In this document: piece after piece, positions 15,572-62,103 of the stretch
Position numbering within the stretch: position 1 is the stretch's first letter
Layout: every line of letters begins with the position of its first letter
Translations under genes and position numbers: made by a program
Assembly: GCA_964436045.1 (NCBI GenBank)
Contig: CAYTBN010000029.1
Span: forward strand, 22,714 to 86,713
DNA length: 64,000 nt
Direction: 5' to 3'
Origin: an uncultured Rickettsiales bacterium
Lineage (GTDB): Bacteria; Myxococcota_A; UBA796; UBA9615; CAYRNR01
Notes under the pieces: model-generated
Seen by the model: only the letters and a program-made list of their open reading frames with translations
What the model was told of the DNA's origin: nothing
The model's database searches: none

Positions 15572-15637
15572 GGTCTCCTCCGAGATCCGCAGCATAGCCG
15601 GATTTGCTGAGACGGGTAGAGGGTCAGGGCCGGGCGG

Positions 15638-23349: not shown

Positions 23350-23469
23350 TCTCGTCTCCCTGATGGTGCCCGCGGGCCTGATCGGGCTGGCGGTGGTGTT
23401 CCCGATCGTGTTCTCGATCAATGCTTCGGTGATCGGCGCGAACCAGGATGGATGAAGGAGGACGGCAGC

Positions 23470-24390
23470 ATGACACGGCGCATCTGGATCGGTCTCGCGG
23501 CGATGGCGCTGCTGGCGGGGACGGGCTGTCCGAAGAGCGACGACGACGACAGTACGGGCGACGACGACACCACCAGCTCGGATGACGACGACGCGACGGG
23601 TGATGACGACACGACCGGGGACGACGACGCCACCGGGGATGACGACGACGCCACCGGGGACGACGACACCAGCGGCGACGACGGGGACGGCTACACGGTC
23701 TGCGAGGACTGCGACGACGGCGACCCGCTGGTCAGCCCTGGGGAGGCCGAGGCCCTCTGCAACGGGGTGGACGACGACTGCGATCCGGCCACCGACGATG
23801 CCCCCGACGACGACGGCGACGGCGCGACGGTCTGCGACGACTGCGACGACGACGACGGGTCACTGAACCTGGACGACGCGGACGGCGACGGCTGGACCAC
23901 CTGCGACGGCGATTGCGATGACGGCGATCCGGACCTGGAGCCCGCCGACCTGGACGGGGACGGCTACAGCCCCTGCGACGACGACTGCGATGACGACGAC
24001 GTCGACCTGGACCCCGCCGACGCGGACGGGGACGGCTGGTCCAGCTGCGACGGGGACTGTGACGACGCGAACGAGGGCTTCTCGATCAACTGCGAGGACC
24101 TGAACTGCGACGGCGACGGCTTGATCCACACCGTCCCCGACGGCTGCATGCACGACGGCGGCGTCAACGCGGGCGGGGACAGCCTGGAGGTCTACTGTTA
24201 CTGGGGGGTGGCCCGGTTCTGCCTGTCCGGAGAGTCTTGCCAGTGGCGCAGCGGCCAGCCGGGGAGCGACGACGGCACCACCTGCGAGCGCGCTGGCCTG
24301 ACCAGCGACTACATGGCCAACGCCTGGTGCGACTACTACGACGGCCACGCCGATTACAACTGCACCACCGCCGAGGACATCTACTTCTAG
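23470..24390 (+). CDS. Cys/Asp-rich lipoprotein with MopE-like putative metal-binding repeats
   Basis: ATG at 23470 with GGAGGA RBS. Lipobox LAGTGC. Long D-rich linker. Repeated DCDDGDP..GxxExxCxGxDDDCD units. Confidence 0.75.
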   Translation: MTRRIWIGLAAMALLAGTGCPKSDDDDSTGDDDTTSSDDDDATGDDDTTGDDDATGDDDDATGDDDTSGDDGDGYTVCEDCDDGDPLVSPGEAEALCNGVDDDCDPATDDAPDDDGDGATVCDDCDDDDGSLNLDDADGDGWTTCDGDCDDGDPDLEPADLDGDGYSPCDDDCDDDDVDLDPADADGDGWSSCDGDCDDANEGFSINCEDLNCDGDGLIHTVPDGCMHDGGVNAGGDSLEVYCYWGVARFCLSGESCQWRSGQPGSDDGTTCERAGLTSDYMANAWCDYYDGHADYNCTTAEDIYF

Positions 24391-28023: not shown

Positions 28024-29874
28024 CTACCGTTCGAAGTTCATCCCGCCCGGCAGCAGATAGCTGGTGTACGACGCGTAGCCATAGATCGTGATGCCGAAGC
28101 GGGAGCTGTCGCTGCTCGCGGCGCGGTGGGAGCCGGGCTGGACCTGGATCCGGGCGACGTCGTAGCCGGTGGAGCCGATGGCTTGCCAGCCGCTGATCGG
28201 GGTGGTGTCCAGGGTGATCGACGAGCCGCTGAGGGCGACCACGTTGACCCAGTTGGAGGTGTAGGTCTCCGGCGTCAGGAAGTCGTAGTCGTTGCGGACC
28301 TGGCTCCAGGGGATGCCGGAGCCCATCGCCGGGTCGCCCGCCGACGTCCCGATCTCGTCCTGCCCCAGCAACGTCTGGGTGGCGTAGAAGCGCCCGGTGC
28401 CTTCGATGACGAAGTCCAGCACCGAGGTGAACTCGACGAACTCGCCCGCGTCCAGGGTGACCGGCCCGTGGGCCTCGGGGGTGAAGGTGATCTGGTTGCC
28501 CGCGTCCCCCGACATCACCCGGTAGTTGACCCAGGCCACCCCGCTACCCTCGGGGTGCATCGGCGCGGTCATCACCGCCAGGTCCCCCCAGGTCTCCACC
28601 GGGAACATGCTCTCTTCCAGGTGGTCGCAGGCCCAGCTGTAGTACGGCATGAAGGTGCACTGGTGACCGGCCATCACCGCCACCGGCTGCGAGGCGGACA
28701 CCGTGGAGCCGGTCAGGTCGCCGCCGGTCACCGAGCAGGCGACCTCGCACTCCTGGCCAAAACTCTGGGGCGGACAGGCTCCGGTCTGGTGGGCGTCCCA
28801 CCCCATGCCTGCGCAGTAGTTCGGGTCCTCGGAGTCGGGCGGGACGTGGGACAGCACCTGCAGCACGTCGCCCCGGTTCAAGGTCACCACCGCCTGCCCG
28901 CCGGGGCTCAGCGCCGGGATGTCACCGGCCAGGGTGTTGGTCGTCGACGTGACCGTCACCTCGGTGCCGTCCACGGTGCCCACCACCGCCATGAAGCCCG
29001 GGTACCAGTAGTCCCACTCCCCGTCCGCGCCGAAGATCGGCACCCAGTCCCAGTCGCCGTGACCCCAGGTGGGCCAGGTGTTGACCCGGTACTCGCCGGT
29101 CAGGCTGTGCTCGGGCAGCAGCAGCGAGGCGTCGTTGGTGTACGAGTTGGCGCCGTCGATCTGGAAGTGCAGCGGGTTGTACTGGTAGGCCACCACCGGC
29201 ACCGTGGTGACCACCTCGTAGGCTCCGTCCGCCACCAGCGCGGTCTGCCCCGGCGACTTGAGCGCGGCCACCATCGGCAGGGAGACCGCCCGGGTCTGGC
29301 CGAAGGGCACCGTCGCCGTGGCCGCGACCTGCCCCCCGAGGGAGACCGTGACGTCGGCGTCGACCCCGTTGGCCTCCGGGTTGCCGATCACCACCGCGAA
29401 GTCCCCGTCGAAGGCCGCCGGCAGCACCGCGTTGTCCGTGGTCACGGCCATGAAGTGGCAGCCGTAGTACGAGTATTGCTGGGCGGCGAGGTCGCAGGCG
29501 TCCAGGCACTCGCCGTTGACGCAGGTCTCAGGCGGCACACACTCGTCCACCATGGCCGCGCTCATCCCGTCGTTGGCGCAGAGCATCACCCGATCGCCGT
29601 CGCAGTAGGTGCTGCCGGGTTCGCAGACCACGCACCCCAACGACGGGTCACACAGGGGAGTCGGCTGAATGCAGGTCTCCTCGACCGTCCAGACCCCCCC
29701 GTCGCAGAGCATCCAGTCGCTGCCCCAGCAGGTGTGATCCCCCTCGGGTGAGCAGCCCACCGTGTCGTCGTCGCCGACGTCGTCGTCTCCGGACGAGGCG
29801 TCGTCGTCTGCCTGGAATCCGGCTCCTGGGCAGCCCGCCGATGGCAGGCCCAGCAGGGCCGCCAGCAGCACCAA
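28024..29874 (-). CDS. Cys-rich lipoprotein, hypothetical (downstream partner of alpha-2-macroglobulin)
   Basis: Probable TTG/GTG start near 29874 giving LVLLAALLGLPSAGC, 33 nt after the A2M stop. N-terminal Cys-rich module (about 20 Cys). The upstream part of the track ORF is R-rich junk. Confidence 0.6.
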   Translation of the reverse strand: MVLLAALLGLPSAGCPGAGFQADDDASSGDDDVGDDDTVGCSPEGDHTCWGSDWMLCDGGVWTVEETCIQPTPLCDPSLGCVVCEPGSTYCDGDRVMLCANDGMSAAMVDECVPPETCVNGECLDACDLAAQQYSYYGCHFMAVTTDNAVLPAAFDGDFAVVIGNPEANGVDADVTVSLGGQVAATATVPFGQTRAVSLPMVAALKSPGQTALVADGAYEVVTTVPVVAYQYNPLHFQIDGANSYTNDASLLLPEHSLTGEYRVNTWPTWGHGDWDWVPIFGADGEWDYWYPGFMAVVGTVDGTEVTVTSTTNTLAGDIPALSPGGQAVVTLNRGDVLQVLSHVPPDSEDPNYCAGMGWDAHQTGACPPQSFGQECEVACSVTGGDLTGSTVSASQPVAVMAGHQCTFMPYYSWACDHLEESMFPVETWGDLAVMTAPMHPEGSGVAWVNYRVMSGDAGNQITFTPEAHGPVTLDAGEFVEFTSVLDFVIEGTGRFYATQTLLGQDEIGTSAGDPAMGSGIPWSQVRNDYDFLTPETYTSNWVNVVALSGSSITLDTTPISGWQAIGSTGYDVARIQVQPGSHRAASSDSSRFGITIYGYASYTSYLLPGGMNFER

Positions 29875-29906: not shown

Positions 29907-32900
29907 CTACTCCACGATCACCTTGTCCGTCGACGTCCGGCCGAAGGTCTCGGGATGGTACATCTCCTCGGCCTTGGTGGGGGGCACGACGAACTCGCCG
30001 GGGGTGGTGGCGCGGGCGACGTAGGTGTACTCGTGGACGCCGTCCCACAGCAGGGAGGCGAAGGCTTCCACGCGCTCGTCGCGCATGTTCTCGTGCTCGT
30101 ACCAGGTGCGCCACCACCACCAGTAGCGGTCGCCCTGGTTGGCGGAGGGATCGGCCGGCAGGGTGCCGGTGACGGCCAGGTCCGGGTTGACCGGTTCGAG
30201 TCCGGCGGGCAGCGGGTCGACCAGGGCCACGTGGTAGCGCCGCATGGGGGCGACCATGGTCAGCCGGATCCGCACGCGGGCGCCGGCCTTGATGCGCCAG
30301 GTTCCGTCCTCGTCCCGCGAGACGTCCGCGTCATCGTCGATGGGCTCGTAGGCTCGCTCGACCGCGAAGCCGTAGTCGGCGGCCTCCAGGTCCAGATCCC
30401 GCGGCGCGTAGTTCATGCCGATGCGGTAGTACATCCGCCCGTCGCCGTCCTTCTGCAGCAGCAGGTTCTGGTCGCCGGGGGTCTCGGTCAGGTAGGCCAT
30501 CGGCACGTCGATGTGGGCCCGCTCGGTGGTCCGACCGCGGAACTCGTGCTCGCCGGCGAAGGTGTCGCCCAACCAGGCCCGTGCCACGAAGTCCGGCGTG
30601 GTGCCTTCGTAGACGTGGAAGTAGCGGTCCAGGGCCAGCAGGATGAAGCAGTTCTCCTGGGTGTTGGACCACTTGCCCCGCTTGCGATGGTCCAGCAGGC
30701 CGGCCACCAGCTTGGGGATCACGTCGTTGTCGGTCTCCACTCCGATCAGCGCCTCGAGCAGGATGCCGTCGGCGCGGCGGTCCGAGTGCAGCAGCACGTG
30801 GGCGCCGTCGCTGTAGGACGTGACGAAGTGGGCGCCGGCCGCGGTCTCGGTGACCCGGTTGCTCAGGTGGCGCAGGATGGCGTCCACCTGGGAGTCGTTC
30901 TTGCTCTGCAGGGTCGGCAGCAGCCAGCCCAGCGACTCCAGCGGCATCTCCTCGATGCCCCCGGCCTCCTTGATCAGCTTGCGCGCCTCGGCCTCGTCGG
31001 TGTCGTCCATCCGGTTGCGGACGTAGACGGCGTAGCTGCGGATGAAGCGCTTCGACTCCTCGGAGTACCAGTGGGGGATGTGGCGTTCGATGCGAGCCAG
31101 ATAGGTCTGCGCGTTCTGCAGCATCTGCTCGTCGACCTCGTAGCCCTTCGACCGGGCGCGGGTCAGCGCGTGGGCCACGTGGACCGTCAGGTAGGGCCAG
31201 CTCTCGTCACCCTTGCGCCAGAAGGACCAGCCGCCGTCGTGGTTCTGGCGGACCTTCAGCCGCTCCAGGTCCGCCGCGACCACCGCCTCCAGCTCCTCGG
31301 GGGACGGCATGCCGTCGGCCTCGAACGCCGTCAACACGTCTCGCAGGGCGGCGATGGCCAGCACCCGCGAGCTGATCTGCTCCTGACACTCGAAGGGGTA
31401 CTGCACCAGGTACAGCACCGCGTCGGTCAGGGCCTGCAGCTGGGTCGACGAGGTGGTGATCTCCAGGCCACCGAACTGGGGCCAGACCTCGCCCGGGGCC
31501 CGCACGGGCTGGACGATCACGCCGTCGTCGATCACGCCGTAGGTGGCGAAGGCCTCGGACGTGGCCGGTGTCCAGACCGGCAGCTCGAAGCTTGCCGCGT
31601 CGGCGAACGACCCGGTGGACGCCACCACCTGGAAGCGGGCCGTGCCCGCCATCTGGGCCGCGGCCGGGAAGCGGACCTCGACCCGGTCGTTGGCCGGGAT
31701 CTGGACCCGCCGGCCGCTCGCCACCGGCAGCCCGGTGCCCTCGCCGGGGATCGCCTGTTCCAGGGTGTCGGCCAGCGAGACGTTGGTCGCCCGCAGCACC
31801 AGCTCGACGGTCATCGGTCCATCGGTCTGGTTCTGCAGCACCACCGGCAGCTCGAAGCGGTCGCCGAAGTTGAGGAAACGCGGCGCCGACGGCCGGGTCA
31901 TCAGCGGCAGCCGGGCGGTGATCGACGACTCTCCCGAGCCGAACTGCTGGCCCCCGGCGACGGCCACGGCCATCACCCGGTAGCGGGTCAGCGAGTCCGG
32001 CAGCTTCAGGTCGACGCTGGCCTTGCCCTGGCCGTCGGTGGTCACCTCCGGCGCGAACAACGCCAGGGCGCGGAAGTCGGTGCGCATGGCGATGGGCGCC
32101 TCCTTGTCGCCGCCGCCCTTGCGCGCGGACTTCTTGGAGGCCGAAAGCGTCCGTCTTTCCTCCATGCCGGAGGCGTCGTCGTCGAACTCGTCCTCGGCCA
32201 GGCGGGCCGCACCCTCCATCGGGGCTGGCGGCATCGCGCCGAAGTCGGCGTTGAATAGGGGCATCGCACTCTGGGCCATCGCCCCGCCGGCAGACATGTT
32301 GGCCGCGGCCATCGCCGCCACCGCCTGGGGATCGGAGAGCAGCACCTGGTGGCGGGAGTGGTAGTCGGACACTCCGGCGCCGCGGGCCGTGTAGAACACG
32401 TCGATGGGGTTGGGTAGCTTGAAGCCGGTCAGCGCCAGCACCGATTCGTCCGCCACCACCAGCGCCACCTCGGCACCGGCCACCGGGTTGCCGGCGGCGT
32501 CGGTGACCAGCAGGTCGATGGCGGTCTCGGCGCCGGGCTCGGTCTTCGCCGCTCGCGGCGTCACCGCCACGTCGAGGGTGCGCTCCAGCGCCGGTACCTG
32601 GAACGTCAGGCTGCCGGTGGCGAAGGCCACCCGTTTCGGCACCCCCGCCATCGGTTCGCCCTGGTCGTCGGTACGCGTCGCCGCGCCCACGAGATCCACC
32701 TGGACCGTCACGTCCGGGACGTGCTCGTCGAGGATCGGGATCTCCAGGGTGGTGGTCGCCTCCTCCATCCGGAAGCGCTCCGTGCGCACCAGCCCCGAGC
32801 GGCGGATGGTCATCACACCCTCGGCCGGGAAGAAGGGGGCCTGGACGAGGATCTGGGCGGTGGTGCCAGGCTCGACGGTGTCGTTGGCCGGGATCAAGGT

Positions 32901-35900
32901 GATCTGCTCCTGCTCGACCTGGCGCGCCGGAGGCTGCTCGCCGCCTGCGACCCACACCCTCAGCTCGGTCTCGTTGGGCCGGCCGCAGTCGTCCTCGACC
33001 CGGGCCAGCACCCGGTAGCTGCCGCCCTCGCCGGGCTGGAAATTGCAGGTGCCCGCCTCGCCGCTCGAGGTCAGCTCGCAGGTCTGGGGATCGGTCTCGA
33101 CCTCGGTCCAGCTGCCGCCCTTGTAGGTCCAGTCCAGCCGGGCCAGGGTCACGTCGATCTTCGTGCCCGTCGCCGCCACACCGTCGATGTCGACGGCGAT
33201 GGCGTCCACATTCAGCGGATCGCCCTTGCCCACGAAGGTCTTGTCGCTGCGCAGGCCGACGTAGAGGCTGGAGGGATGGACCAGCAGGCTGGTGCTGGCG
33301 GTCCAGGCCTGGCGGTTGACGTCGGTGATGGTCGCCTCGGCGGTGACCGTGGTCGGCCGCGGCGGGTTCATCGACTCGAAGTGCGCGCCCAGGTAGTGAC
33401 GGCCCAGGGAGTCGGTCTTTCCCTCCAGCGACTCCCACTGGCTCTGGGCGTTGCCCCACATCGATCCGTACCACCACCAGGGTGACCAGACGCCGAAGTT
33501 GTAGTCGCCGCGATCGGGCGGGCTGTAGGAGCCCGGCGATGCGTTGACCGACCAGTAGACCGGCGCGCTCGGCAGCCCGCCGCCAGCATAGTAGGCGGCC
33601 TCGGTGGTGAACACGGCCTCCTCGCCCAGCACGTAGGGGCCGGGATCGACGCTGGCACTGACCTCGAACTCGGGGCGGCGGAACTCCTGGATCTGGATCG
33701 GGTGGCTGTGGCTGGTGTTGGACAGGGACCCCACCGCGATGGCGTCCAGGTACAACCAGGCCGTGCCCAGGTTGACGTTGTCCGGCAGGGTCATCGACAG
33801 GTCGAAGCCGCCCAGCCCGCTGAGGTTCGCCTCGCCGTCGACCAGATCGTTGCCGCGGGGGCCGCGCAGGACCCAGCGGACGCTGCCCGCGTCGGTCTCC
33901 AGGTCCTGGATGTCACCGCCTACGCCCCCCTCGAAGCGGCGCAGCCAGCCCTTGACCCGCACGTCCTCGCCGGGCTTGTACAGGCCCCGGTCGTCGAAGC
34001 TGTACCAGCGCGCCTGGTCGCCCTGCTCGACCTTGGTCCAGCCGGCATATTCGTTCCACCAGCTGATCTGCTGGGGCAGCAGGGCCACGTCGGCGCCCTT
34101 GCGGGCCACGAGCACCTGGGGGCCGTCAGGGTTGGCCAGCAGCTCCAGCCGCGCCATGCCGGCGTCGTCGGTGGTGGCCGCCGGCTGGCCGCCGGGCAGC
34201 ACCTCGAGCTGTACGCCGTCCAGGGGCGCGCCGTCGGCCAGGGCCGTGGTCCAGCCCACCAGCTCCTTGTAGTCGGCGAAGGCGGTCAGGCCGATGTGGG
34301 TCACCTGGACCCAGACCAGCACCTCCTGGCGGTACCAGCGCTCCTTGGGCTGCTTGGTGGGTTCGATGCGCATCAGGAACTGGCCGAAGCCGTTCTGCAG
34401 GTGGGGGGTCAGGTCGATCAGGGTCTCGTTGAGGGTGTCGCCCTCACCCTCGACCTTGATCGTGCTGGCGGCCAGCTCGGTGCCGGGCAGCGGTCCCGGG
34501 TTCTTGTCGTCGTACTGGTAGGTCTGCATCCACGACAGCCAGTCGTCCCACTGCTCGGCTCCGACCCGGTGGATGCGGACCTTCAGCTTGTCGTGGTTGG
34601 TCGAGTAGATCGGCACCTTGGCCGGGCCGACGGGGTCGAGGACGACCATGTTCTGGCCCGGTCCGAACAGGGTCTGCTCGGCCGGTCCGACCCTGAACTT
34701 GAGATCCTTGTCCTTGCCCAGGGTCTGGCCGAACGAGTCCTGCAGCGACGCGGGCACGGTCACGGTGTAGACCGTGCGTCCCTGCTTGACGCCGTCGATG
34801 GTCACGTCGTTGCCCCACACCTGGACCCGCATGCCCTGGACTTCGGGCTCGACCCGGAAGGCGCTGGGATCGAAGGCCTGCTCGTCCAGGGGATTGTTGA
34901 ACTCGATGCGCCAGCCGGAGGTGGGCGGGCACTCGTCGTACCAGTTGCAGTGGTGGTCGACGACCTGCAGGGGGTCGAAGGTGCGGAAGGAGAACGCCTG
35001 GTCGCCCGGGGTGACCCGCGGCCCCTCGGCGGAAGGGGCACCCTTGCCCACCGACACGGTGAACGAGGTCGCCCTGGGCAGGGTCTGCTTGGGCCGCAGG
35101 GCGAGCCAGCGACCCTCCTCGGCGCGCTCGACTAGCATCTTGACCGTGGCGTCCGCGAGGATCTCCTGCTCGGTGGCGGGACGCACGGCCCAGGACTGGC
35201 CGCCGCCCTTCAGCTCGATGAAGGGCAGCAGGGCGTCGGCGTCGATGGCCTGGTCGAAGCCCAGGAACATCACGGGGGTCAGACCATAGGGGCCGTACTC
35301 GGGGTGGCGCTGGGTCAGCCCGAGCGCGGGGGTGGTGAAGGTGAACGTCAGCGCCTCGGCGAGCTTGTCGCCGGTGGCGGACTCGGTGCCCGCGGGCACG
35401 GTGACCGTGTACTCGGTAGCCATCGGGAAGCGGGGATCGGGATCGAACAGGGCGGTGCGTGTGCCCAGCCAGCGCCAGCTACCCGCCGGGGTCGGCGACA
35501 GCTGGACCGGCACGGTCTCCGCGGCCTCCTGCTGGGAGGTCACCGCCACCATCGGCCGCGAGAATGTCAGGCTCAGGTGGGGGGCCATCGGCACATCGCC
35601 CACCGGGGCGTGGCGCAGCACCTCCAGGGTGCCGGGCTCGCCCTCGTCGGGGATCGGCGGCGCCTCGGGCGGCGGGAAGGGGATGTCGACGGTATCGCCG
35701 GTCAGCGGGGCCGGCAGCGAGCCCTCGCGTTTGGCGAACGAGGCGCGGTCGCCGCCCTCGGTCTGCAGCGCGTCCACCCGGGCCAGCCGCTTCTCGGTCT
35801 GCGACGCCGACAGGATCTCTGCCTCGGCCGGGGGGATCGCCTCGCCCGTGGCCGACGGGGCGCCGGCCTCGAACAGCCGCAGCCGCAACCCGCTGAGGGC

Positions 35901-36026
35901 GTCGTCCTCGACGAAGTGCACCGGCTTGGGGTCTGCCGACTGTTCCTCCGTGTTGGTGGAGGGCGTGGGCTTCTTGCAACCGGTCAGCGCCAGCAGCACG
36001 GTCAGCAACAATAGAGCTCTTCGCAT
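29907..36026 (-). CDS. bacterial alpha-2-macroglobulin family lipoprotein (2039 aa)
   Basis: ATG with GAGGGG RBS. Lipobox LALTGC. Very large multi-domain protein. CxEQ-type putative thioester motif (FECQEQ). Overall YfhM/A2M-like organisation. Confidence 0.85.
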   Translation of the reverse strand: MRRALLLLTVLLALTGCKKPTPSTNTEEQSADPKPVHFVEDDALSGLRLRLFEAGAPSATGEAIPPAEAEILSASQTEKRLARVDALQTEGGDRASFAKREGSLPAPLTGDTVDIPFPPPEAPPIPDEGEPGTLEVLRHAPVGDVPMAPHLSLTFSRPMVAVTSQQEAAETVPVQLSPTPAGSWRWLGTRTALFDPDPRFPMATEYTVTVPAGTESATGDKLAEALTFTFTTPALGLTQRHPEYGPYGLTPVMFLGFDQAIDADALLPFIELKGGGQSWAVRPATEQEILADATVKMLVERAEEGRWLALRPKQTLPRATSFTVSVGKGAPSAEGPRVTPGDQAFSFRTFDPLQVVDHHCNWYDECPPTSGWRIEFNNPLDEQAFDPSAFRVEPEVQGMRVQVWGNDVTIDGVKQGRTVYTVTVPASLQDSFGQTLGKDKDLKFRVGPAEQTLFGPGQNMVVLDPVGPAKVPIYSTNHDKLKVRIHRVGAEQWDDWLSWMQTYQYDDKNPGPLPGTELAASTIKVEGEGDTLNETLIDLTPHLQNGFGQFLMRIEPTKQPKERWYRQEVLVWVQVTHIGLTAFADYKELVGWTTALADGAPLDGVQLEVLPGGQPAATTDDAGMARLELLANPDGPQVLVARKGADVALLPQQISWWNEYAGWTKVEQGDQARWYSFDDRGLYKPGEDVRVKGWLRRFEGGVGGDIQDLETDAGSVRWVLRGPRGNDLVDGEANLSGLGGFDLSMTLPDNVNLGTAWLYLDAIAVGSLSNTSHSHPIQIQEFRRPEFEVSASVDPGPYVLGEEAVFTTEAAYYAGGGLPSAPVYWSVNASPGSYSPPDRGDYNFGVWSPWWWYGSMWGNAQSQWESLEGKTDSLGRHYLGAHFESMNPPRPTTVTAEATITDVNRQAWTASTSLLVHPSSLYVGLRSDKTFVGKGDPLNVDAIAVDIDGVAATGTKIDVTLARLDWTYKGGSWTEVETDPQTCELTSSGEAGTCNFQPGEGGSYRVLARVEDDCGRPNETELRVWVAGGEQPPARQVEQEQITLIPANDTVEPGTTAQILVQAPFFPAEGVMTIRRSGLVRTERFRMEEATTTLEIPILDEHVPDVTVQVDLVGAATRTDDQGEPMAGVPKRVAFATGSLTFQVPALERTLDVAVTPRAAKTEPGAETAIDLLVTDAAGNPVAGAEVALVVADESVLALTGFKLPNPIDVFYTARGAGVSDYHSRHQVLLSDPQAVAAMAAANMSAGGAMAQSAMPLFNADFGAMPPAPMEGAARLAEDEFDDDASGMEERRTLSASKKSARKGGGDKEAPIAMRTDFRALALFAPEVTTDGQGKASVDLKLPDSLTRYRVMAVAVAGGQQFGSGESSITARLPLMTRPSAPRFLNFGDRFELPVVLQNQTDGPMTVELVLRATNVSLADTLEQAIPGEGTGLPVASGRRVQIPANDRVEVRFPAAAQMAGTARFQVVASTGSFADAASFELPVWTPATSEAFATYGVIDDGVIVQPVRAPGEVWPQFGGLEITTSSTQLQALTDAVLYLVQYPFECQEQISSRVLAIAALRDVLTAFEADGMPSPEELEAVVAADLERLKVRQNHDGGWSFWRKGDESWPYLTVHVAHALTRARSKGYEVDEQMLQNAQTYLARIERHIPHWYSEESKRFIRSYAVYVRNRMDDTDEAEARKLIKEAGGIEEMPLESLGWLLPTLQSKNDSQVDAILRHLSNRVTETAAGAHFVTSYSDGAHVLLHSDRRADGILLEALIGVETDNDVIPKLVAGLLDHRKRGKWSNTQENCFILLALDRYFHVYEGTTPDFVARAWLGDTFAGEHEFRGRTTERAHIDVPMAYLTETPGDQNLLLQKDGDGRMYYRIGMNYAPRDLDLEAADYGFAVERAYEPIDDDADVSRDEDGTWRIKAGARVRIRLTMVAPMRRYHVALVDPLPAGLEPVNPDLAVTGTLPADPSANQGDRYWWWWRTWYEHENMRDERVEAFASLLWDGVHEYTYVARATTPGEFVVPPTKAEEMYHPETFGRTSTDKVIVE

Positions 36027-39041: not shown

Positions 39042-40619
39042 TCACCCGGTGTAGTGGCGGTCGACCACGGCGAGGGCGCGGTCGAGGCGGGCGATGCCGT
39101 CGTCGATGTCGTCGCGGGTGGCGATCAGGGGCGGTGCCAAGGCGATGGAGTTGGTGGGGTTGGCCGCCATCGCGATCATGTCCTCGGCGGCGATGGCCTT
39201 GGCCAGCTCCTGCTTGGGCGTGGGCCCCTTGCTCAGCCGCGCGTCCATCGGCTGGATCGGTTCTCTGGTCGTCCGGTCTTTGACCAGATCGAGGCCCACG
39301 AACAGACCCAGGCCGCGGACCTCGCCGATGCAAGGGTGGCGATCCTGGAGCGCGCGGGCCTGGTCCAGCAGGTAGGCGCCCAGGGTGGCGGAGTTCTCGA
39401 TCAGGCCGTCCTCCTCGTAGATCTGGATCACGCGGAGCGCCGTGGCGCAGGCCAGGGCGTGACCGGCGTAGGTGGCGCCGTGGTTGAAGAAGCGGTCGCG
39501 GAACAGGTCGGCCACGGGTTTGCGGGCGATGGTCGCCCCCAGCGGGACGTACCCGGCGGTGATGCCCTTGGCCACGGCCATCACGTCAGGCACCACGTCC
39601 CAGTGGTCCACCGCAAACCAGCGGCCCGTGCGGCCGAACCCGCTCATCACCTCGTCGGCGATCAGCAACAGGCCGTGGCGATCGCAGATCTCGCGGATGC
39701 GGGGCATGTAGTCCGGCGGAGGCACGATGACGCCGTTGGCCCCGGTGATCGGCTCGACGATCATCCCGGCGATCTGGTCGGCGCCGCCCTCCAGCTCGAT
39801 CACCTCGTCGACGAAGGAGGCGCAGCGCAGCTCACACGACGGGTACTCCAGGCCGAACATGCAGCGGTAGCAGTAGGGCTGCGGTACGGGCACCCAGTCG
39901 GTGCCGCCCCGGATCTGGGCCCACGACCGCACGTCCCCCACCGACAGGGTCAGCGCTGCCGCCGTGGCGCCGTGGTAGGCCCGGTAGCGACACAGGATCT
40001 TGGCCTTGCCCGTGGCCTGGTGGGCGATCTTGATCGCCGCCTCCACCGCCTCGGTGCCCCCCAGCGTCAGGAACGAGCGGGACAGGTCACCGGGCGTGAT
40101 CTCCGCCAGCGTGCGGGCCAGCAGCGCCCGCGGCTGGGTCGAAAACGTCGGCGCGAACGAGCACAGCGACCCGCTCTGCTCCCGGATCGCCTCGACCACC
40201 CGCCGGTCGCCGTGGCCGATGTTGTGGCTGGCAAAACACGACGAGAAGTCCAGCCGCTCCCGCCCGTCCTCGGTCACGAACCGGCACCCCTCCGCGGACA
40301 CCACCCGCGGCGGCGCCACGTCGGGCTGATGACTCCACGAGTGGAAGACGTGCTCGACCTCGTAGCGGTCCAGGTCGGCGGGGGTGGCGGGGATGTTGGG
40401 CAGATCGCGCATGACGGCCACCTCGTTGCTGGCGTCGTACACCAGCACCGGGCCGCGGTTCAACTGCGGAAACGCATTGTGGCGGGCGGCGTTGACGTAG
40501 ACGTTCCCCTGCAGGCCCTCGCCGGTGAAGATGCCGCTGAAGTCGGCGAGTTGCTCGTCGAACATGTCGGTCATGCCCAGGGACTGCAGGGCCTCCTTCA
40601 GGGGCAGCTCGTAGTCCAT
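39042..40619 (-). CDS. class-III (omega) PLP aminotransferase; the catalytic core probably begins at the ATG at 40412
   Basis: IADEVMSGFGRTGRWFAVDHWDVVPDVMAVAKG (PLP Lys). HVFHSWS N-terminal region. The first 69 codons (40413..40619) are coding-like but atypical. Confidence 0.8.
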   Translation of the reverse strand: MDYELPLKEALQSLGMTDMFDEQLADFSGIFTGEGLQGNVYVNAARHNAFPQLNRGPVLVYDASNEVAVMRDLPNIPATPADLDRYEVEHVFHSWSHQPDVAPPRVVSAEGCRFVTEDGRERLDFSSCFASHNIGHGDRRVVEAIREQSGSLCSFAPTFSTQPRALLARTLAEITPGDLSRSFLTLGGTEAVEAAIKIAHQATGKAKILCRYRAYHGATAAALTLSVGDVRSWAQIRGGTDWVPVPQPYCYRCMFGLEYPSCELRCASFVDEVIELEGGADQIAGMIVEPITGANGVIVPPPDYMPRIREICDRHGLLLIADEVMSGFGRTGRWFAVDHWDVVPDVMAVAKGITAGYVPLGATIARKPVADLFRDRFFNHGATYAGHALACATALRVIQIYEEDGLIENSATLGAYLLDQARALQDRHPCIGEVRGLGLFVGLDLVKDRTTREPIQPMDARLSKGPTPKQELAKAIAAEDMIAMAANPTNSIALAPPLIATRDDIDDGIARLDRALAVVDRHYTG

Positions 40620-40776
40620 CTCGAAGGACGGCAGGTGGACGGTGGCCGGGCATCGGCGTGCCCGGTACCGCGGCTACCGGCGTCGCGCCCAGCGGCCCAC
40701 GACCGCCCACAACCCTCGCGGGGCCGACTCGAGGTCCTCGTCGTCGTCCAGGACCATGTCGAGGACGGGACCCTGT

Positions 40777-40888
<112 letters not shown>

Positions 40889-41514
40889 ATTCCGCCTCCG
40901 CCCGAACATCCTCCAACGTCAGCGTCAGATCCGGCTCGAACGACCCCAGGACGATCTCCTCGTCCTCGACCCCGAGCTCGCTCCGGACCGGTGCGACCGG
41001 GAGGGGGGGCTCCATGCTCGGAATCCCCTCGCTGCCGTCCAGCGACAGCGACAGCACGTCCTCCGACACGAGCAGGTGGGCGTCGCTCACCTCTCCTGAC
41101 GGCCAGCCAGCGACGAGCAGCGTGCAGCCCCGGCAGAACAGCACACCCGAGGGAAGCACGAAGGCCGCCTTGAGCCCGCAACCCGGGCAGACGGCGCCGT
41201 CCTCGAACCCCTCGGCGCCATCGGTCGCGGCGTGCAGCGCGATCCCGTGGCTCCCCGCCAGCATCCGCCGCTGGGGCGGCGTCAGCCAGGGAGCACCCTC
41301 GGCCACCGTCGGCGCCCGCTCCGCCGCGATGTGCAAGGCCGACCCGAGGTACGCGTCAAACGCGACGCTGGCCGTCTGGCCACAACCGTCGCACTCGACC
41401 GCGAACGACAGTTCGTGGCTGACGTTCTCCCGACCGCATCGCGGGCACTCGTACATCGTTCCGCCTCGATCGTCTCTCATCGGACCCTCCAATCTGCTAG
41501 GCACGGTTCCCATC

Positions 41515-41955
41515 TTAGTGGACCCGCTTGTCGTGATCCCGCCAGTACTCGTCCAGCTGGGCGTCGCTGGACCAGATGACCCGCGGCAGCGCGGGAAGGT
41601 CGCCAGCCAGGGCCTCCTCCACCAGGGAGCGGTGGTCCTCGTGGGCCAGGACCAGCCGCGCGCCGCTGTCCCGCAGGATGAGGGCCACCTCCCGCCCCGT
41701 CAGTCGCGTGTTGATCGGCACCAACACCAGCCCGGCGTAGGCCGCGGCGAAGTAGGCCTCGAGGAAGACGTGGCCGTTGGGGCGGACGATCGTCACCCGG
41801 TTGCCCAGCTCCAGACCCGCCCCGCGCAGGGCCGCTGCCAGCGCCCTTGCCCGCTCGGCAAATCGGGCGTAGTTCAGCCGGATGTCGCCGCTGACCACCG
41901 CCTCGCGGTCGGGCCACAGCTGGGCGGCCCGGTCGAGGATCGACGCGATGTGCAT
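41515..41955 (-). pseudogene. truncated AMP-dependent synthetase/ligase (acyl-CoA synthetase N-terminal 146 aa only)
   Basis: DREAVVSGDIRLNYARFAERARALAAALRGAGLELGNRVTIV...AAAYAGLVLVPINTRLTGREVALILRDSGARL is the canonical N-terminus of the roughly 500-aa AMP-binding family. It stops after about 146 aa, immediately upstream of the zinc-ribbon gene. Confidence 0.55.
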
Positions 41956-42031
41956 GGGACCTCCCGCCAAAGGATTGTGGAAGGGGGCCCGGGGTTTGGC
42001 AATACTGTGCGGCGACGGCGAGGAGGTTGTC

Positions 42032-43435
42032 ATGGGTCGATGGACAGGACTGGCGGTGGCGGTGGCGGTGCTCGGGCTGCACGGGCCCGCGTCGGCCGAC
42101 GACGTGCAGGTCAACGGCACCCTGCGGGACGGGGGCGACCACAAGGTGCTCCACGTCTGGGGCACCCACATCGAGATGGGGTACGCCCACGGCTATCTGC
42201 TCGCCGACGAGGTGATGGCCCTCGCCGAGGGTTACATCTTGCCCATGTATGGGGTTTCACCCGATCAGTACGAGACGCTCCTGAGCGTGGTGCTGCCGAC
42301 CTTCGACATCCCGCCCTCCCTGCGAGCCGAGGCCGAGGCGCTGGTCGAGGGGGTTCGCGCCGCTGGTGTGTCCCTCCATCTCGACACGCTGGAGCGCGAC
42401 CTGGAGGTGGACGACCTGCTGCTGGCCAACGCCGCGTCGGACCTGTTCGGCGTGTCGTGGTACTGCTCGTCGATCTCGGCCTGGGGTGAGGCCACGGCCG
42501 CGGACCCGGACCTGGCCGGAGAGCTGGCCATGGCCCGCGACCTGGACTGGGACTTCGGGGGCGACGCGGCCGATCTGCGCGACTTCGGGCTGGTGATCGC
42601 GTACGAATCCACGGACGACGACGAGCAGCGCTGGGTCTCGGTGGCCTTCCCCGGCTACATCGGCTGCCTGTCGTGCGTGAACGAGTCGGGCATCGGCGCC
42701 TTCCAGAACCAGGGCAACCACGCCACCACCCTGTCGAACCTGGACACGGACCCCGCCCCCGCCCCGATCAACATGACCCTGCGGACGGCCATCGAGGCCC
42801 GCGATGCCGACGGCGATGGCACCAACACCATCGGCGACGTGGAGCACGCGGTCACGGAGGTGGGGCGGATGGGGACCTACGAGATCCACCTGATCTCGCC
42901 GGCCGACCGCTCCGATCCCCCCGCCGCGATCCTGGAAGCCAACAACGGCGGCACCGCACTGCGGACGCCCGCCGACGAGCCCCTGCCGGGCCCGGACTGC
43001 GTGGCCACCACCAACCACCACCGGGAGCTGTACACGCCGACCATGTGCAGCCGTTACGCGACCATCGTCGAGATGGTGGGCGACTACGATGGCGTCCTGG
43101 ACGTCGAGCGGCTCTGGGAGATCGAGAAGGAGGTCTCGTGGGACTCCGGCGACAGCGGCACCGTCCAGACCATGCGGGTCGTGCCGGCGCGCCAGATCCT
43201 GGACGTCGCTTTCTCCGACGCCAACGAGGTCGCCCCCTATCACGCCCCCACCTCGTACTCCTTCGATGTCTTGTTCGGCGATGGGGGGCCCGACCCGACG
43301 GCCGACGACGACGATGACGACGACGACGCGCCCGGAAGTTGCCAGTGCTCCCAGCACACCCCCGCCGTACCCTGGGCGATCTCCGCCGCCCTGCTCGGCT
43401 CCCTGGCCCTCGGGTTCGCCGTCCGCCGCCCCTGA
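42032..43435 (+). CDS. secreted protein with MYXO-CTERM-like tail, possible Ntn-hydrolase (C45-like)
   Basis: ATG with GGAGG RBS. Signal peptide. C-terminal GSCQCSQH..WAISAALLGSLALGFAVRRP. Poly-Asp before the tail. Confidence 0.7.
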   Translation: MGRWTGLAVAVAVLGLHGPASADDVQVNGTLRDGGDHKVLHVWGTHIEMGYAHGYLLADEVMALAEGYILPMYGVSPDQYETLLSVVLPTFDIPPSLRAEAEALVEGVRAAGVSLHLDTLERDLEVDDLLLANAASDLFGVSWYCSSISAWGEATAADPDLAGELAMARDLDWDFGGDAADLRDFGLVIAYESTDDDEQRWVSVAFPGYIGCLSCVNESGIGAFQNQGNHATTLSNLDTDPAPAPINMTLRTAIEARDADGDGTNTIGDVEHAVTEVGRMGTYEIHLISPADRSDPPAAILEANNGGTALRTPADEPLPGPDCVATTNHHRELYTPTMCSRYATIVEMVGDYDGVLDVERLWEIEKEVSWDSGDSGTVQTMRVVPARQILDVAFSDANEVAPYHAPTSYSFDVLFGDGGPDPTADDDDDDDDAPGSCQCSQHTPAVPWAISAALLGSLALGFAVRRP

Positions 43436-43487
43436 TTCGATACAAAAAAATCCTCAAGTTCCAGATGCCCTGTCCGATAGCTCAACC

Positions 43488-43835
43488 ATGGCAGTCTCCA
43501 GGGCCAGTGGGATCGCGAGCACAGGCATGGCAGCGGCGTCGCGCCGGCTGGACAACGTGGCGCGTAACGTGGCCAACCTGCAGACTGCCGGCTACCGTCC
43601 CCAGCGCATCGTGACCAAGGAACTGCCCCACGGCGGCGTCACCACCGAGTCGGTTCCGGCGGAGATCCCCGAGGAGTCCTGGCTGGACAACCCGGCGCTC
43701 GACGGTGGCTCCCACGTGGATCTCGCCTTCGAGACGGTGGAGCGGATCAGCGCTGCGGCGACCTTCCGCGCCAACGCCGCGGTCATCGAAGCGGCGGACG
43801 AGGCGGAGCAGTCGCTGCTCGACATCCTGGCCTGA
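43488..43835 (+). CDS. flagellar basal-body rod protein FlgC-like protein (orphan, 115 aa)
   Basis: N-terminus ASTGMAAASRRLDNVARNVANLQTAGYRPQ matches the FlgB/FlgC rod N-terminal motif. C-terminus VDLAFETVERISAAATFRANAAVIEA matches the rod C-terminal motif. Low-GC leader upstream. Confidence 0.55.
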   Translation: MAVSRASGIASTGMAAASRRLDNVARNVANLQTAGYRPQRIVTKELPHGGVTTESVPAEIPEESWLDNPALDGGSHVDLAFETVERISAAATFRANAAVIEAADEAEQSLLDILA

Positions 43836-43919
43836 CCCTCCCGAGTTTGAACGACACGCGGACCAGACTGGCCAACGGAGCCCCCGAAGCGGCATGATCC
43901 CTCGCCGGAGGGACGACCG

Positions 43920-45899
43920 ATGAAGCGCCACCTGCCCCTGACCGGGCTGTTCGCCGTGCTCGCCTGCCTCGCCCTGCTTGCCTGCGATCCCGAGGATCCG
44001 ACCGGGGACGACGACACCACCGGGTCGGTGGATCCGATCCACGTCGACATCGACGAGGAGTGCGACAACGTCAATCCGGACTACTGCATGCTGCCGTGGC
44101 CCTCGAGTCGTTACCTGGCGGCCGACGACGGCACCGCCACCGGCTGGCGGGTCGACTACCGCGAGGACGCGTTCACCAAGAACCACATGGACCAGCCCTT
44201 CGACGTCGAGCCCTACAATCGGCTCGACGGGTTCAGCCCCGCGTCGCAGCTGCTGACGGTCTTCGACGCGCCGGTCGACGCCTCGGCGTTGCCCTTCCAC
44301 GACAGCTACGACCTGTCCCTCGAGGCCGACTGCCCGACGGTGGTCCTGGACATGGAGACCGGCGAGCGGCTGGCCCATTTCGCCGAGTTCGACACCCGCT
44401 TCGACTACCCCGGCGAGATCATGATGTACATCCGGCCAGCGGAGCGGCTGGAGGAGAACCGGCGGTATGCGGTGGCGATCCGCGGCCTGCAGTACGAGGA
44501 CGGCGGCGAGGTACCGCCGTCCGAGGTGTTCGCCGCCCTGCGCGACGGCGTGATCACCGACGCGGCCCAGGTCGAGGCCCGTCGCCCGGGCTTCGAGGAG
44601 GTCTTCTCCGCGCTGACCGGTGCCGGAGTCGAGCGCGATGGCCTGATCCAGGCCTGGGACTTCCACACCGCGTCGGGCGAGATGATCTGGGGCGACCTGC
44701 TCCACATGCGGGACGACGCCTTCGAGCGGCTGGGCGCCGACGGGCTGGGCTGCACCATCACATCGGTGGAGGAGTTCACCCCCGAGGAGAACGACCAGGT
44801 CTTTCGCAAGATCAAGGGCACCTACACCGTGCCGTCGTACATGGACAGCCCCTACCCGCCCGCGCGGGTGGTGCGCGGTGACGATGGGCGGCCCGAGTTC
44901 CAGGAGAACCAGGAGATCGAGTTCTTCATGAACATCCCCCAGAGTGTGGCCGAATCCGGCGGTCATCCCGCCCGGCTGATCACCCATGGTCACGGGCTGA
45001 TGGACTCGGGCGAGGCGGTGTTCTGGAGCGGCGAGCGGGGCATCGCCCAGGACGTGGGCGTGGTGATGGTCGGCACCCACTGGGCCGGCATGTCCGAGGA
45101 CGACCTGGTGACCGTGGCCACGGCCCTCTCCAATGTCTCGAGCTTCCCCAACGTGGCCGAGCGGACCATGCAGGGGATCGTCAACATGCTGGCGCTGACC
45201 CGCACCATGGCCGGGGTCTGTGCCGTCGAGCCCGATCTCCAGATCGACGGCACGCCGGCCTATGATCCCGACGAGCGCTACTACATGGGTGTCAGCCAGG
45301 GGGCGATCTACGGCCAGTCCTACATGGCCCTCTCCCAGGACCTGGAGCGGGGCATCCTCAACGTCGGCGGCACCATCTACCCGGTGATGATCGGCCGCTC
45401 GGTGGACTTCCGCGACTACGAGCTGGTCTACGAGGCCTGGTACAGCGACCGCATCGACCGCGAGTTCTTCATGAACCTGATCCAGCAGCTGTGGGACATG
45501 TGCGAGGGCGCCGGCTTCCTGCCCCACCTGCTGGACGACCCCCTCCCGGGTAGCGAGGCCAAGAAGATCCTCTACCAGGTGGCCCTGCACGACGCCCAGG
45601 TCCCCAACGTGGCCTCGGACATGGCGGCTCGCATCGCCGACATGCCCCAGCTCGTGCCCACCATGCACGAGGTCTGGGGGGTCGAGGACGCCCCGACCGA
45701 GCCCTACGACGGCTCGGCGATCCAGTACTGGGATTGCGGCGACGAACCCCTCGATCCGGGCAACAATCCGCCGGAAGAGGACAATACCGCCCACGACTGC
45801 GTCCGCCGCCTGGTCGCGGCCAAGAACCAGATGGACGCCTTCTGGCAGCCGGACGGCCAGGTGGTGAACTTCTGTGACGGGGAGTGCGATCCGGAGTGA
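43920..45899 (+). CDS. lipoprotein, hypothetical (possible hydrolase fold)
   Basis: ATG start. Lipobox LLAC. D-rich linker. 659 aa with good composition. Confidence 0.75.
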   Translation: MKRHLPLTGLFAVLACLALLACDPEDPTGDDDTTGSVDPIHVDIDEECDNVNPDYCMLPWPSSRYLAADDGTATGWRVDYREDAFTKNHMDQPFDVEPYNRLDGFSPASQLLTVFDAPVDASALPFHDSYDLSLEADCPTVVLDMETGERLAHFAEFDTRFDYPGEIMMYIRPAERLEENRRYAVAIRGLQYEDGGEVPPSEVFAALRDGVITDAAQVEARRPGFEEVFSALTGAGVERDGLIQAWDFHTASGEMIWGDLLHMRDDAFERLGADGLGCTITSVEEFTPEENDQVFRKIKGTYTVPSYMDSPYPPARVVRGDDGRPEFQENQEIEFFMNIPQSVAESGGHPARLITHGHGLMDSGEAVFWSGERGIAQDVGVVMVGTHWAGMSEDDLVTVATALSNVSSFPNVAERTMQGIVNMLALTRTMAGVCAVEPDLQIDGTPAYDPDERYYMGVSQGAIYGQSYMALSQDLERGILNVGGTIYPVMIGRSVDFRDYELVYEAWYSDRIDREFFMNLIQQLWDMCEGAGFLPHLLDDPLPGSEAKKILYQVALHDAQVPNVASDMAARIADMPQLVPTMHEVWGVEDAPTEPYDGSAIQYWDCGDEPLDPGNNPPEEDNTAHDCVRRLVAAKNQMDAFWQPDGQVVNFCDGECDPE

Positions 45900-61071: not shown

Positions 61072-62103
61072 TCACCTGCGGCGGCGCACGACCAGGACCG
61101 CGGGTGCCAGCAAGAGCATCAGCGCCGCGGTCGCCGCTCCGTCGGGTCCGGCGCCGATGGCACAGGCGGCGGGCTCGCAATCCGCGGGGGTGAGCTCGAC
61201 GGTGGTGCTGAGCCCCGCCACCGTCGCGGTCACCGGCACGGTCCCCGAGGGCTGCAGCGCGATGAGCACCGTGTCCGCGTCCGGCATCGCGGTCGTCCCC
61301 TCTGGCACGCTCCAGCTGACCTGCTGGCCGAGCACCGGGAGGCCGTCGGCGGTGGTCGGCTCGGCGACCACCGTCGCCTCGTCGACCCCGCAGAGCTGGT
61401 GGACCGCCAGCTGGAGCTGGTTGATGGACGACGCGTAGACCGTGCTGACCCGGTAGTTGGCCGCGCCATCGCCCGCCGCGGTCGTGATCGTCACCGTCGC
61501 CTCACCCGGGGCATGCGGCGTGAACTTGAGCACGTCGCCTCCGGCATCGACCTCCAGCGATGGGTCGTCGGCCTCGGCAGCCACCACGTCCCAGTGGTTG
61601 AGGACGTCGCCGTCGCCGCCGGAGAGCTCCGTCCGCGCCGCCATCACCGAACCCAGGGCCACCGCGAAGGCATCCGGCACCGTCCGCTCGCCCGCGAGCC
61701 GGAGGTCGACGGAATCCGCCTCGCGGACCTCCAGGTCGAGCCCGTCGAGCCAGACCTGTTGCTCCCGATCCACCAGGTTGACCGTGGCCAGCCCGGGCCG
61801 TCCGGCGACGAAGCTCGCCCAGGCGTGGCTGGCGTCGTCCCCCGCGGTCGGGACCAGCACCGCTTCGTCGCTGCTGTGGAGTTCTGCGGGCAGGGAGTTA
61901 CCGTCCTCACCCACCGCCGATGCGGTCACCGTGAAAGTGCTGCCGGACGCGATCGCCGCGTCCGGATCCCAGCCGTCCCCGGGCAACTGTCCCCCGCCGA
62001 GCTGGAAGGTGCTCTCCTCGAACTGGCCGCCGGAAGGGCAGCCCAGGACCAGGCAGCTGACCGCCATGGCCAGCAGCGTGCCCGTCGATCGTCGCCAGTG
62101 CAT
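61072..62103 (-). CDS. lipoprotein with MYXO-CTERM-like tail
   Basis: ATG at 62103. Lipobox LVLGC. C-terminal CEPAACAIGAGPDG..ALMLLLAPAVLVVRRRR. Confidence 0.7.
   Translation of the reverse strand: MHWRRSTGTLLAMAVSCLVLGCPSGGQFEESTFQLGGGQLPGDGWDPDAAIASGSTFTVTASAVGEDGNSLPAELHSSDEAVLVPTAGDDASHAWASFVAGRPGLATVNLVDREQQVWLDGLDLEVREADSVDLRLAGERTVPDAFAVALGSVMAARTELSGGDGDVLNHWDVVAAEADDPSLEVDAGGDVLKFTPHAPGEATVTITTAAGDGAANYRVSTVYASSINQLQLAVHQLCGVDEATVVAEPTTADGLPVLGQQVSWSVPEGTTAMPDADTVLIALQPSGTVPVTATVAGLSTTVELTPADCEPAACAIGAGPDGAATAALMLLLAPAVLVVRRRR

Follow-up and report, generated by a model that had tools for sequence, protein, structure and literature searches.

We analysed a short gene in a 64-kb stretch of DNA (part of contig CAYTBN010000029.1, in the following called the window) whose product resembles FlgC, a protein of the flagellar rod. 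The open reading frame (ORF) at 43488..43835 on the plus strand has an ATG start and a TGA stop, and its product is 115 amino acids (aa) long. Given its codon-position GC content, its Pfam matches, its fold model, and its orthologs, we annotate it as the coding sequence of a minimal FlgC-like axial (i.e., rod-family) protein. The GC fractions at codon positions 1/2/3 are 0.69/0.52/0.88, which is the pattern of the long genes of the window, and neither of the other two frames shows it. An exact-sequence look-up of the product gave no record, a tblastn search of plasmid sequences with it gave no match, and no Sec-type signal is found in the 115 aa.

Both neighbours are encoded on the same strand and are treated here as context outside the unit. 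The upstream one (42032..43435) codes for a C45-like secreted protein whose tail resembles MYXO-CTERM, and the downstream one (43920..45899) for a 659-aa lipoprotein, whose lipobox LLAC|D is followed by an Asp-rich linker. Flanked by a MYXO-CTERM-type protein and a lipoprotein, the gene is solitary, as a first-pass annotation of the window had stated. Seven close relatives of the 115-aa protein show 63-97% identity, and the full-length ones among them are all exactly 115 aa long. Orthologs with 63-86% identity retain the same synteny, and pairwise dN/dS values range from 0.18 to 0.52. We conclude that 43488..43835 is a real gene under purifying selection.

Likeness to FlgC

Pfam reports a match to Flg_bb_rod (PF00460) for residues 10-37, which scores 22.0 bits and thus exceeds the gathering cutoff of 20.7, and a match to Flg_bbr_C (PF06429) for residues 74-112, which falls with 22.8 bits just under the cutoff of 23.0. 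The first-pass annotation had claimed that both termini match the rod proteins FlgB/FlgC and had proposed a search with these two models as a check; its claim holds up by the FlgC-like sequence and fold described below, with the C-terminal Pfam score being borderline. Within NCBIfam, the protein matches only models of flagellar rod, hook, and junction proteins, all of them far under the cutoffs. The FlgC equivalog model TIGR01395, for instance, gives 30.7 bits compared to a cutoff of 102.1. The respective E-values are lower for FlgC (3.2e-7) than for FlgB (1.5e-3).

Profile comparisons point in the same direction. For a profile of the 115-aa protein and its relatives, the best match in the Protein Data Bank (PDB) is Salmonella FlgC (7bin_V, E=1.3e-12), which covers positions 1-107 of the 115, and this family profile also matches the C-termini of FlgC, FlgE, and FlgG therein. 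When aligned with the FlgC of E. coli/Salmonella, the protein is matched end-to-end with 29% identity, and the Salmonella profile alignment agrees with this.

Based on 150 relatives, we also built an AlphaFold2 model of the protein. With a mean pLDDT of 89.7, it predicts a helix at residues 2-29, a beta-hairpin at 39-57 with a GG(V) motif, and a second helix at 79-114; the loop 58-78 is of lower confidence. The two terminal helices are modelled as a D0 coiled-coil hairpin, where the D0 coiled coil is the element by which rod, hook, and junction proteins polymerise. Foldseek relates the model to rod proteins with a probability of 1.00. FlgC chains in the proximal rod of Salmonella (7cg0) rank first with TM scores of 0.76-0.79, followed by FlgB chains with 0.60-0.71. 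The residues that are near-invariant in the family (G13, A25, N27, A29, N30, G49, G50, E82, A95, and N96) fall on axial-protein motifs. The protein is FlgC-like in sequence and in predicted fold.

Compared to FlgC of Salmonella (PDB 7CG0, 7BIN), the common features are thus an end-to-end alignment with 26-29% identity, the N-terminal ANxxN, the GGV beta-hairpin, the C-terminal (S/P)NVDL...AN helix, and, as predicted, the D0 coiled coil with a short Dc domain. On the other hand, FlgC has 134 aa, such that the mini protein is about 19 residues shorter, which is due to three reduced loops (Dc), and it ends in LLD(I/V)LA, which is typical of the new family introduced below. Furthermore, its gene is monocistronic and lies outside any flg operon, its product fails the FlgC equivalog threshold, and an early/middle-class promoter in flgC contrasts with a sigma-28-type promoter here. 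FlgB has a similar minimal D0 and Dc architecture and, as modelled, a similar size, while its sequence and fold scores are below those of FlgC.

Promoter motif and family of lone genes

The intergenic stretch of 52 nt that leads from the stop codon of the upstream gene to the ATG (43436..43487) has a GC content of 44%, compared to 70% for the window. It had been described as a locally AT-rich leader; the composition is confirmed, while the supposed leader is rather a conserved putative promoter of the sigma-28 type. It comprises, on the plus strand, a -35-like element TCAAGTTC (43454..43461), an 11-nt spacer (43462..43472), and a -10-like element TCCGATAG (43473..43480), where the two elements are assigned to the sigma-28 (FliA) type by their likeness to the consensus. 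Relative to the FliA consensus TAAAGTTT-N11-GCCGATAA (PMC7286023), the motif at 43454..43480, i.e., TCAAGTTC-N11-TCCGATAG, agrees at 12 of 16 positions with exact spacing. Its -10-like element alone agrees with GCCGATAA at 6/8 positions and keeps the CCGATA core intact.

The motif was first noticed by eye and then tested by pattern scans. If at most one mismatch is allowed, TCAAG-N15-CCGATA has a single site in the whole window, where 0.30 are expected by chance. Each ortholog locus likewise holds exactly one site of this core, which is always found directly 5' of the gene. For a comparison of the promoters, we used five orthologous loci (the window, L010, L011, L005, and L007). In all five, CCTCAAG and TCCGAT are invariant and CCGAT lies 9 nt before the ATG; the spacer keeps its length and varies freely in sequence. 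The promoter motif is conserved in both sequence and position. A Shine-Dalgarno sequence was not found before the ATG at any of the five loci. Just 5' of the -35-like element, an A7 tract can be read from the plus strand (43444..43450). An A- or T-rich run is present at its position in 5/5 loci, and the tract is a possible UP-like promoter element.

A generic scan of 43000..44300 for sigma-70 promoters and terminators returned nothing. Rfam gave no match for 43300..44000, i.e., the AT-rich stretch is no known RNA element. We also considered a sigma-32-type promoter and rejected it, since the -35 region agrees with CTTGAA at only 3/6 positions while the sigma-28 core and spacing are exact.

From FliA promoters, transcription begins a few bases past the -10 element. 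Combined with the 9-nt geometry, a leaderless mRNA is therefore predicted, which would begin at or beside the A of the ATG. Judged from the motif, the gene is probably FliA-dependent, and the conserved sigma-28-type promoter implies that the lineage would have a FliA/WhiG-type sigma factor.

The gene is a member of a larger family, in the following called mini-FlgC. With the family profile, a search of 1.84 billion cluster representatives recovers 5231 proteins if E<=1e-3 is required, while 952 clusters remain at E<=1e-10. Nearly all of the top 150 members are 95-145 aa long. None of these 150 reaches the FlgC equivalog cutoff of TIGR01395, where the top member (E=2.5e-26) comes to an estimated ~94 bits compared to the required 102.1. 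Many members have a precomputed PF06429 match, and the flgK_ends model matches 119/150. The source annotations of the proteins vary, i.e., they are named FlgC or FlgE, carry a generic name, or have none.

All members whose context we examined are monocistronic, with neighbours that are unrelated to one another. The neighbours vary among Burkholderiales metagenome-assembled genomes (MAGs), one MAG labelled 'Proteobacteria bacterium' (L020), and Pseudorhodoferax aquiterrae KCTC 23314 (together L012-L021). In Rhodopseudomonas sp. HC1 (L028), the gene lies between PepSY_TM and Opp transporter genes. On a 4.78-Mb contig (L025) it adjoins a gene of a methyl-accepting chemotaxis protein (MCP), on a 1.88-Mb contig (L026) it lies amid transposase genes, and on a 10-kb contig (L027) purine-synthesis genes are found upstream and a SEC-C domain gene downstream. 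On two short metagenomic contigs (L008/L009) it sits behind hrcA-grpE. Two further members are close to flagellar genes, namely 1.2 kb from fliO(weak)-motA-motB on a 79-kb contig (L022) and close to a che cluster with fliI and fliJ on a 111-kb contig (L024). A 117-aa group annotated as coming from Nitrospira MAGs belongs to the family as well. That is, the family exists and its examined members stand alone; it is distinct from the canonical gene of the flgBC operon. Rhodopseudomonas and Pseudorhodoferax are flagellated genera, and their family-carrying members presumably have a standard flgBC. Our literature searches on FlgC-like proteins, orphan flgC, and flgC2/flgC paralogs returned only second flagellar systems or unrelated work. 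The superfamily itself is well known, while no description was found in the literature of a lone, trimmed FlgC-like subfamily with frequent sigma-28 promoters.

Three members from unrelated lineages also carry a sigma-28 motif 20-27 nt before their ATG. These are L025 (51% GC; TCAAGTTT..TTCCGATG) and L027 (58% GC; TAAAGTTC-N11-ACCGATAT), both of which have a GGAGG ribosome-binding site, and L026 (58% GC; TCAAGTTT-N11-GCCGATAA), which has no obvious one. The window and the loci of the family members, which sum up to ~805 kb when both strands are counted, were scanned for the core with a fixed 15-nt spacing. Among the 7 perfect matches, 5/7 are located directly 5' of a family gene and 1/7 upstream of the MCP gene of L025. 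The latter site (TAAAG-N15-CCGATA at 11067..11092 of the 4.78-Mb contig) lies ~165 nt before the MCP gene, which follows the family member there; judged from this motif, the chemoreceptor gene may be FliA-dependent, too.

A further scan of metagenomes for CCTCAAG-N15-TCCGATA gave matches most of which, among those listed, look like chance. Plausible flagellar genes among the listed matches are, by eye, fliD with a nearby flagellin gene (L140), a FliS-like gene (L039), and a FliM-like gene (L126); none of these is assignable to the lineage of the window. Contig L140 (5452 nt, 69% GC), which is apparently from outside that lineage, seems to encode flagellin, FliD, and a FliS-like protein side by side, followed by one more small ORF (by eye from the translations), with the pattern just 5' of fliD. 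Since this site precedes fliD, the pattern catches real sigma-28 promoters.

The late sigma-28/FliA genes (flgK, flgL, fliC, fliD, flgM, motAB, and MCP genes) share the promoter type with the 115-aa gene and are likewise often scattered and monocistronic. No such gene is known for a rod-type (FlgB/FlgC-like) protein, however. FlgK shares terminal motifs with the mini-FlgC family, while the size and the hairpin of the mini protein resemble FlgC rather than FlgK.

Neighbouring loci and host lineage

The orthologous loci share a gene order, i.e., an AMP-binding enzyme on the minus strand, the secreted C45-like protein of ~466 aa, the 115-aa gene, and a large lipoprotein. The upstream neighbour in the window shows C45_proenzyme with E=4.9e-19, which is below cutoff, and is syntenic in all orthologous loci. 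For its tail, MYXO-CTERM is the only match and remains with 17.2 bits just under the 20-bit cutoff. We set the start of the gene to M51, given the ortholog lengths of 462-468 aa and the signal peptide that follows M51, such that 42032..43435 is its most likely extent. The downstream lipoprotein matches no family in a Pfam search. In four relatives an ion-channel gene sits between the 115-aa gene and the lipoprotein gene, such that these two do not form an obligate operon. The inserted gene of these 86%-identical relatives (L001-L004) encodes a 300-aa voltage-gated-type channel (Ion_trans; e.g., 6584..7486 of L001) and is not found in the window.

Some relatives of the protein deviate in length. 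P0009 and P0010 (73 aa) are reduced to the pair of terminal helices, i.e., the hairpin of the rod fold is gone, and share the LLDILA ending; they may represent a further-reduced branch of the mini-FlgC family. P0004 (149 aa) is identical to P0002 through residue 86 and continues with an unrelated sequence that has a different Pfam match. This is probably a frameshift or a chimeric contig rather than a domain fusion.

Further upstream in the window, at 39042..42192, the order seen in the relatives (aminotransferase, DUF2079, serpin, AMP-binding enzyme) is disrupted. The AMP-binding gene is present only as an N-terminal 218-aa piece (41515..42171), and a 50-residue serpin fragment is joined to the start of the aminotransferase ORF (39042..40619). 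The space between these fragments is taken up by a hexanucleotide array at 40777..40888, (TCGGTC) x 18.7, and by a zinc-ribbon-like ORF without relation to the locus (40854..41513). The synteny was broken either by a genuine rearrangement or by a join made in the assembly.

Among the products of the window are numerous lipoproteins whose linkers are rich in Asp, a Ser/Thr kinase that carries FG-GAP repeats, and FHA, GGDEF, and ankyrin proteins. With the MYXO-CTERM model TIGR03901 (cutoff 20 bits), we find three tails on secreted proteins, namely at the ends of 61072..62103 (-) with 21.4 bits, which passes, 1622..3016 (-) with 18.4 bits, and 41882..43435 (+) with 17.2 bits. All three consist of a Cys, a subsequent hydrophobic stretch, and RRR, and MYXO-CTERM is their best or only NCBIfam match. 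The first-pass annotation had spoken of Myxococcota hallmarks, which is in accordance with these sorting tails of Myxococcota type, one of three scoring at or above the cutoff. Considering these features, a Myxococcota-like origin of the window is supported, short of proof. The GlgB protein allows no taxonomic placement, its nearest named relatives (from Anaerolineae MAGs) being only ~60% identical. L010 and L011 (CAZBPN010000083.1 and CAZITQ010000099.1) come from genomes named 'uncultured Rickettsiales bacterium' and have 71% GC. Their Rickettsiales label looks unreliable, as it fits poorly with this GC content and with the MYXO-CTERM-type neighbours of the syntenic window.

Two further observations concern the lipoproteins of the window. 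Asp runs such as DDDDDD or DDDTTGDDDD follow the lipobox Cys within a few residues in 7525..8619, 12938..15595, 15638..18115, 23452..24390, and 43920..45899, which looks like a lineage-typical linker; two of these lipoproteins are large adjacent beta-helix (NosD-like) paralogs. A 2039-aa alpha-2-macroglobulin lipoprotein (29907..36026, -) adjoins a protein with an IgGFc-binding domain (28024..29712, -). We take this pair to be a large anti-protease or defence-type system that is unrelated to the FlgC-like gene.

Competing explanations and meaning

We consider it reasonably probable that the gene encodes a member of an undescribed FlgC-like axial subfamily, that a FliA-type promoter drives its expression and yields a leaderless transcript, and that it belongs to an organism with a flagellar regulon elsewhere in its genome. 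The 115-aa protein would then be a minimal FlgC-type axial protein, composed of two D0 helices and the short FlgC beta-hairpin with trimmed loops, and other parts of the genome would encode a flagellar system and a sigma factor of the FliA type. Transcription would start from the conserved sigma-28-type promoter very near the ATG and give the leaderless mRNA. The protein would be exported through the flagellar type III apparatus, as other axial proteins are, and would add to or cap the proximal rod/export-gate region as a late-class accessory subunit. Type III export is expected because the protein lacks a Sec signal and keeps all elements of a polymerising rod subunit, i.e., both D0 helices, the hairpin with GGV, and the invariant axial-protein residues. 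The export route, the site of action, and the flagella of this genome are in this sense predictions from sequence. The role of the protein could be that of a structural accessory, a cap/plug, or a regulator.

Several points weigh against this reading. Flagellar or chemotaxis genes are absent from the 64-kb window, no flagellar gene lies within ~1.5 kb past its right end, and neither fliA nor flagellar type III export or other flagellar genes are found in ~100 kb of related contigs. Most cultured Myxococcota are without flagella, and the lineage has Myxococcota-type features. Sigma-28-type factors also occur in non-flagellated bacteria, e.g., WhiG in Streptomyces and sigma-28 in Chlamydia. Within the family, the motif is frequent and not universal, because the Burkholderiales/betaproteobacterial and the alphaproteobacterial members show no clear sigma-28 motif. 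Rod genes are usually of the early or middle class, and we know of no established rationale for a late promoter on a rod-like subunit. Finally, our literature search found no experiment on any member of the family.

The mismatch of promoter and protein leads to another explanation, in which family and regulon are the same and the role differs. That is, the protein might be a late-secreted regulator or plug instead of a load-bearing rod subunit, which seals or blocks the export gate or the rod channel, or reports the state of assembly like FlgM. A sigma-28 late-class promoter is indeed ill-suited to an early structural rod subunit, the 73-aa relatives retain two helices only, and the protein has shorter versions of the loops with which FlgC is braced against adjacent subunits. 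Direct evidence for such a role is missing, however, and D0 and the hairpin, as expected of a subunit that polymerises, are fully retained, as are the invariant axial-protein residues. We therefore regard this explanation as doubtful, albeit worth keeping in mind.

A relic, or a gene recruited by another machine, was what the first-pass annotation had suggested, based on the premise that Myxococcota are generally non-flagellated. In its explicit form, a Myxococcota-like lineage would have lost its flagellum and kept a FliA/WhiG-type sigma factor and one axial protein for another envelope machine, a candidate being a needle-less non-flagellar type III system of the Myxococcus kind. The lack of flagellar genes in the window and the related contigs, the MYXO-CTERM-type tails, and the purifying selection, by which the gene does something, are all in line with this. 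Furthermore, M. xanthus has two non-flagellar type III systems including FliO homologs, one of which is tied to prey killing (PMC12248157). Envelope machines that descend from the flagellar export apparatus are thus found in non-flagellated Myxococcota, and a recruited gene would require a machine of this sort. On the other hand, the surroundings of the 115-aa gene contain none of the components of such a system, and the M. xanthus report, as far as read here, mentions no rod-family protein (PMC12248157).

The premise itself is not uniform. Anaeromyxobacter dehalogenans holds a 55.7-kb flagellar cluster, with swimming seen in one strain (PMC2330069), and uncultured Zodletone Myxococcota MAGs encode flagellar assembly (bioRxiv 10.1101/2021.07.06.451402). 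That is, some Myxococcota are flagellated and Myxococcota-type genomes can hold full flagellar regulons, although these are encoded in one large cluster and nothing ties them to this lineage or to the mini-FlgC family. Moreover, ~160 kb without a flagellar gene weighs little for a genome of several Mb. The family is found in flagellated genera as well as near mot, fli, and che genes, and its sigma-28 promoter type recurs on members of unrelated lineages, such that an ordinary flagellar regulon is the simplest reading of the shared promoter. Given the promoter, the large family of lone genes, the members beside mot/fli/che, the three unrelated members with the motif, and the flagellated Myxococcota, there is no support for viewing the gene as odd in a genome that lacks flagella. 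A relic or recruited gene is unlikely, and we consider the gene more likely a part of the flagellar programme than a stray relic.

Even less can be said for the gene being the organism's canonical flgC displaced from its flgBC operon. FlgC is its closest known protein by sequence and fold, and some source annotations name family members FlgC. However, the low score on TIGR01395, which none of the best 150 members passes, the residues missing from the Dc loops, and the lone family genes in Rhodopseudomonas and Pseudorhodoferax, where we expect a standard flgBC, make this very improbable. It also disagrees with FlgC being regarded in the literature as a universal single-copy gene and marker (PMC10746217). 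The label of an ordinary displaced flgC paralog is thus too dismissive, even given a flagellar regulon elsewhere, since the product does not pass TIGR01395 and falls into a subfamily of its own that is so far uncharacterised. A chance ORF or decaying pseudogene, as the marginal Pfam scores might suggest, is refuted by the conservation data and has a negligible probability, considering the codon-position GC pattern, five orthologs of exactly 115 aa without frameshifts and with dN/dS below 0.52, the conserved promoter, and the confident fold prediction.

Taken further, the mini-FlgC family might constitute a sixth axial protein of the proximal flagellum, which is widespread, has so far gone unrecognised, and is made late under sigma-28 control. 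We put this forward tentatively, as an idea with an appreciable though minor chance of being right. Possible roles would be to remodel or seal the rod/export channel once the hook-basal body is complete, or to act in relic motors. In a radical variant restricted to the lineage of the window, an aflagellate Myxococcota-like bacterium would have retained the protein after the loss of its flagellum, along with a sigma factor of the FliA/WhiG type, and both would now serve a type III machine of the non-flagellar kind.

For the annotation of genomes, the family matters since pipelines label its members FlgC or FlgE, generically, or not at all, while FlgC is used as a single-copy marker. The window also teaches caution in taking a lone gene of a flagellar family as evidence for a relic or for repurposed machinery. 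The point of interest is the undescribed family and not the supposed anomaly of this genome. In several unrelated lineages, a late-gene promoter precedes a rod-like gene, which is unexpected for a rod subunit. If the mini-FlgC proteins are real accessory axial proteins, this would add a new component to a heavily studied machine, and the family is open to testing in culturable hosts, e.g., Rhodopseudomonas and Pseudorhodoferax aquiterrae.

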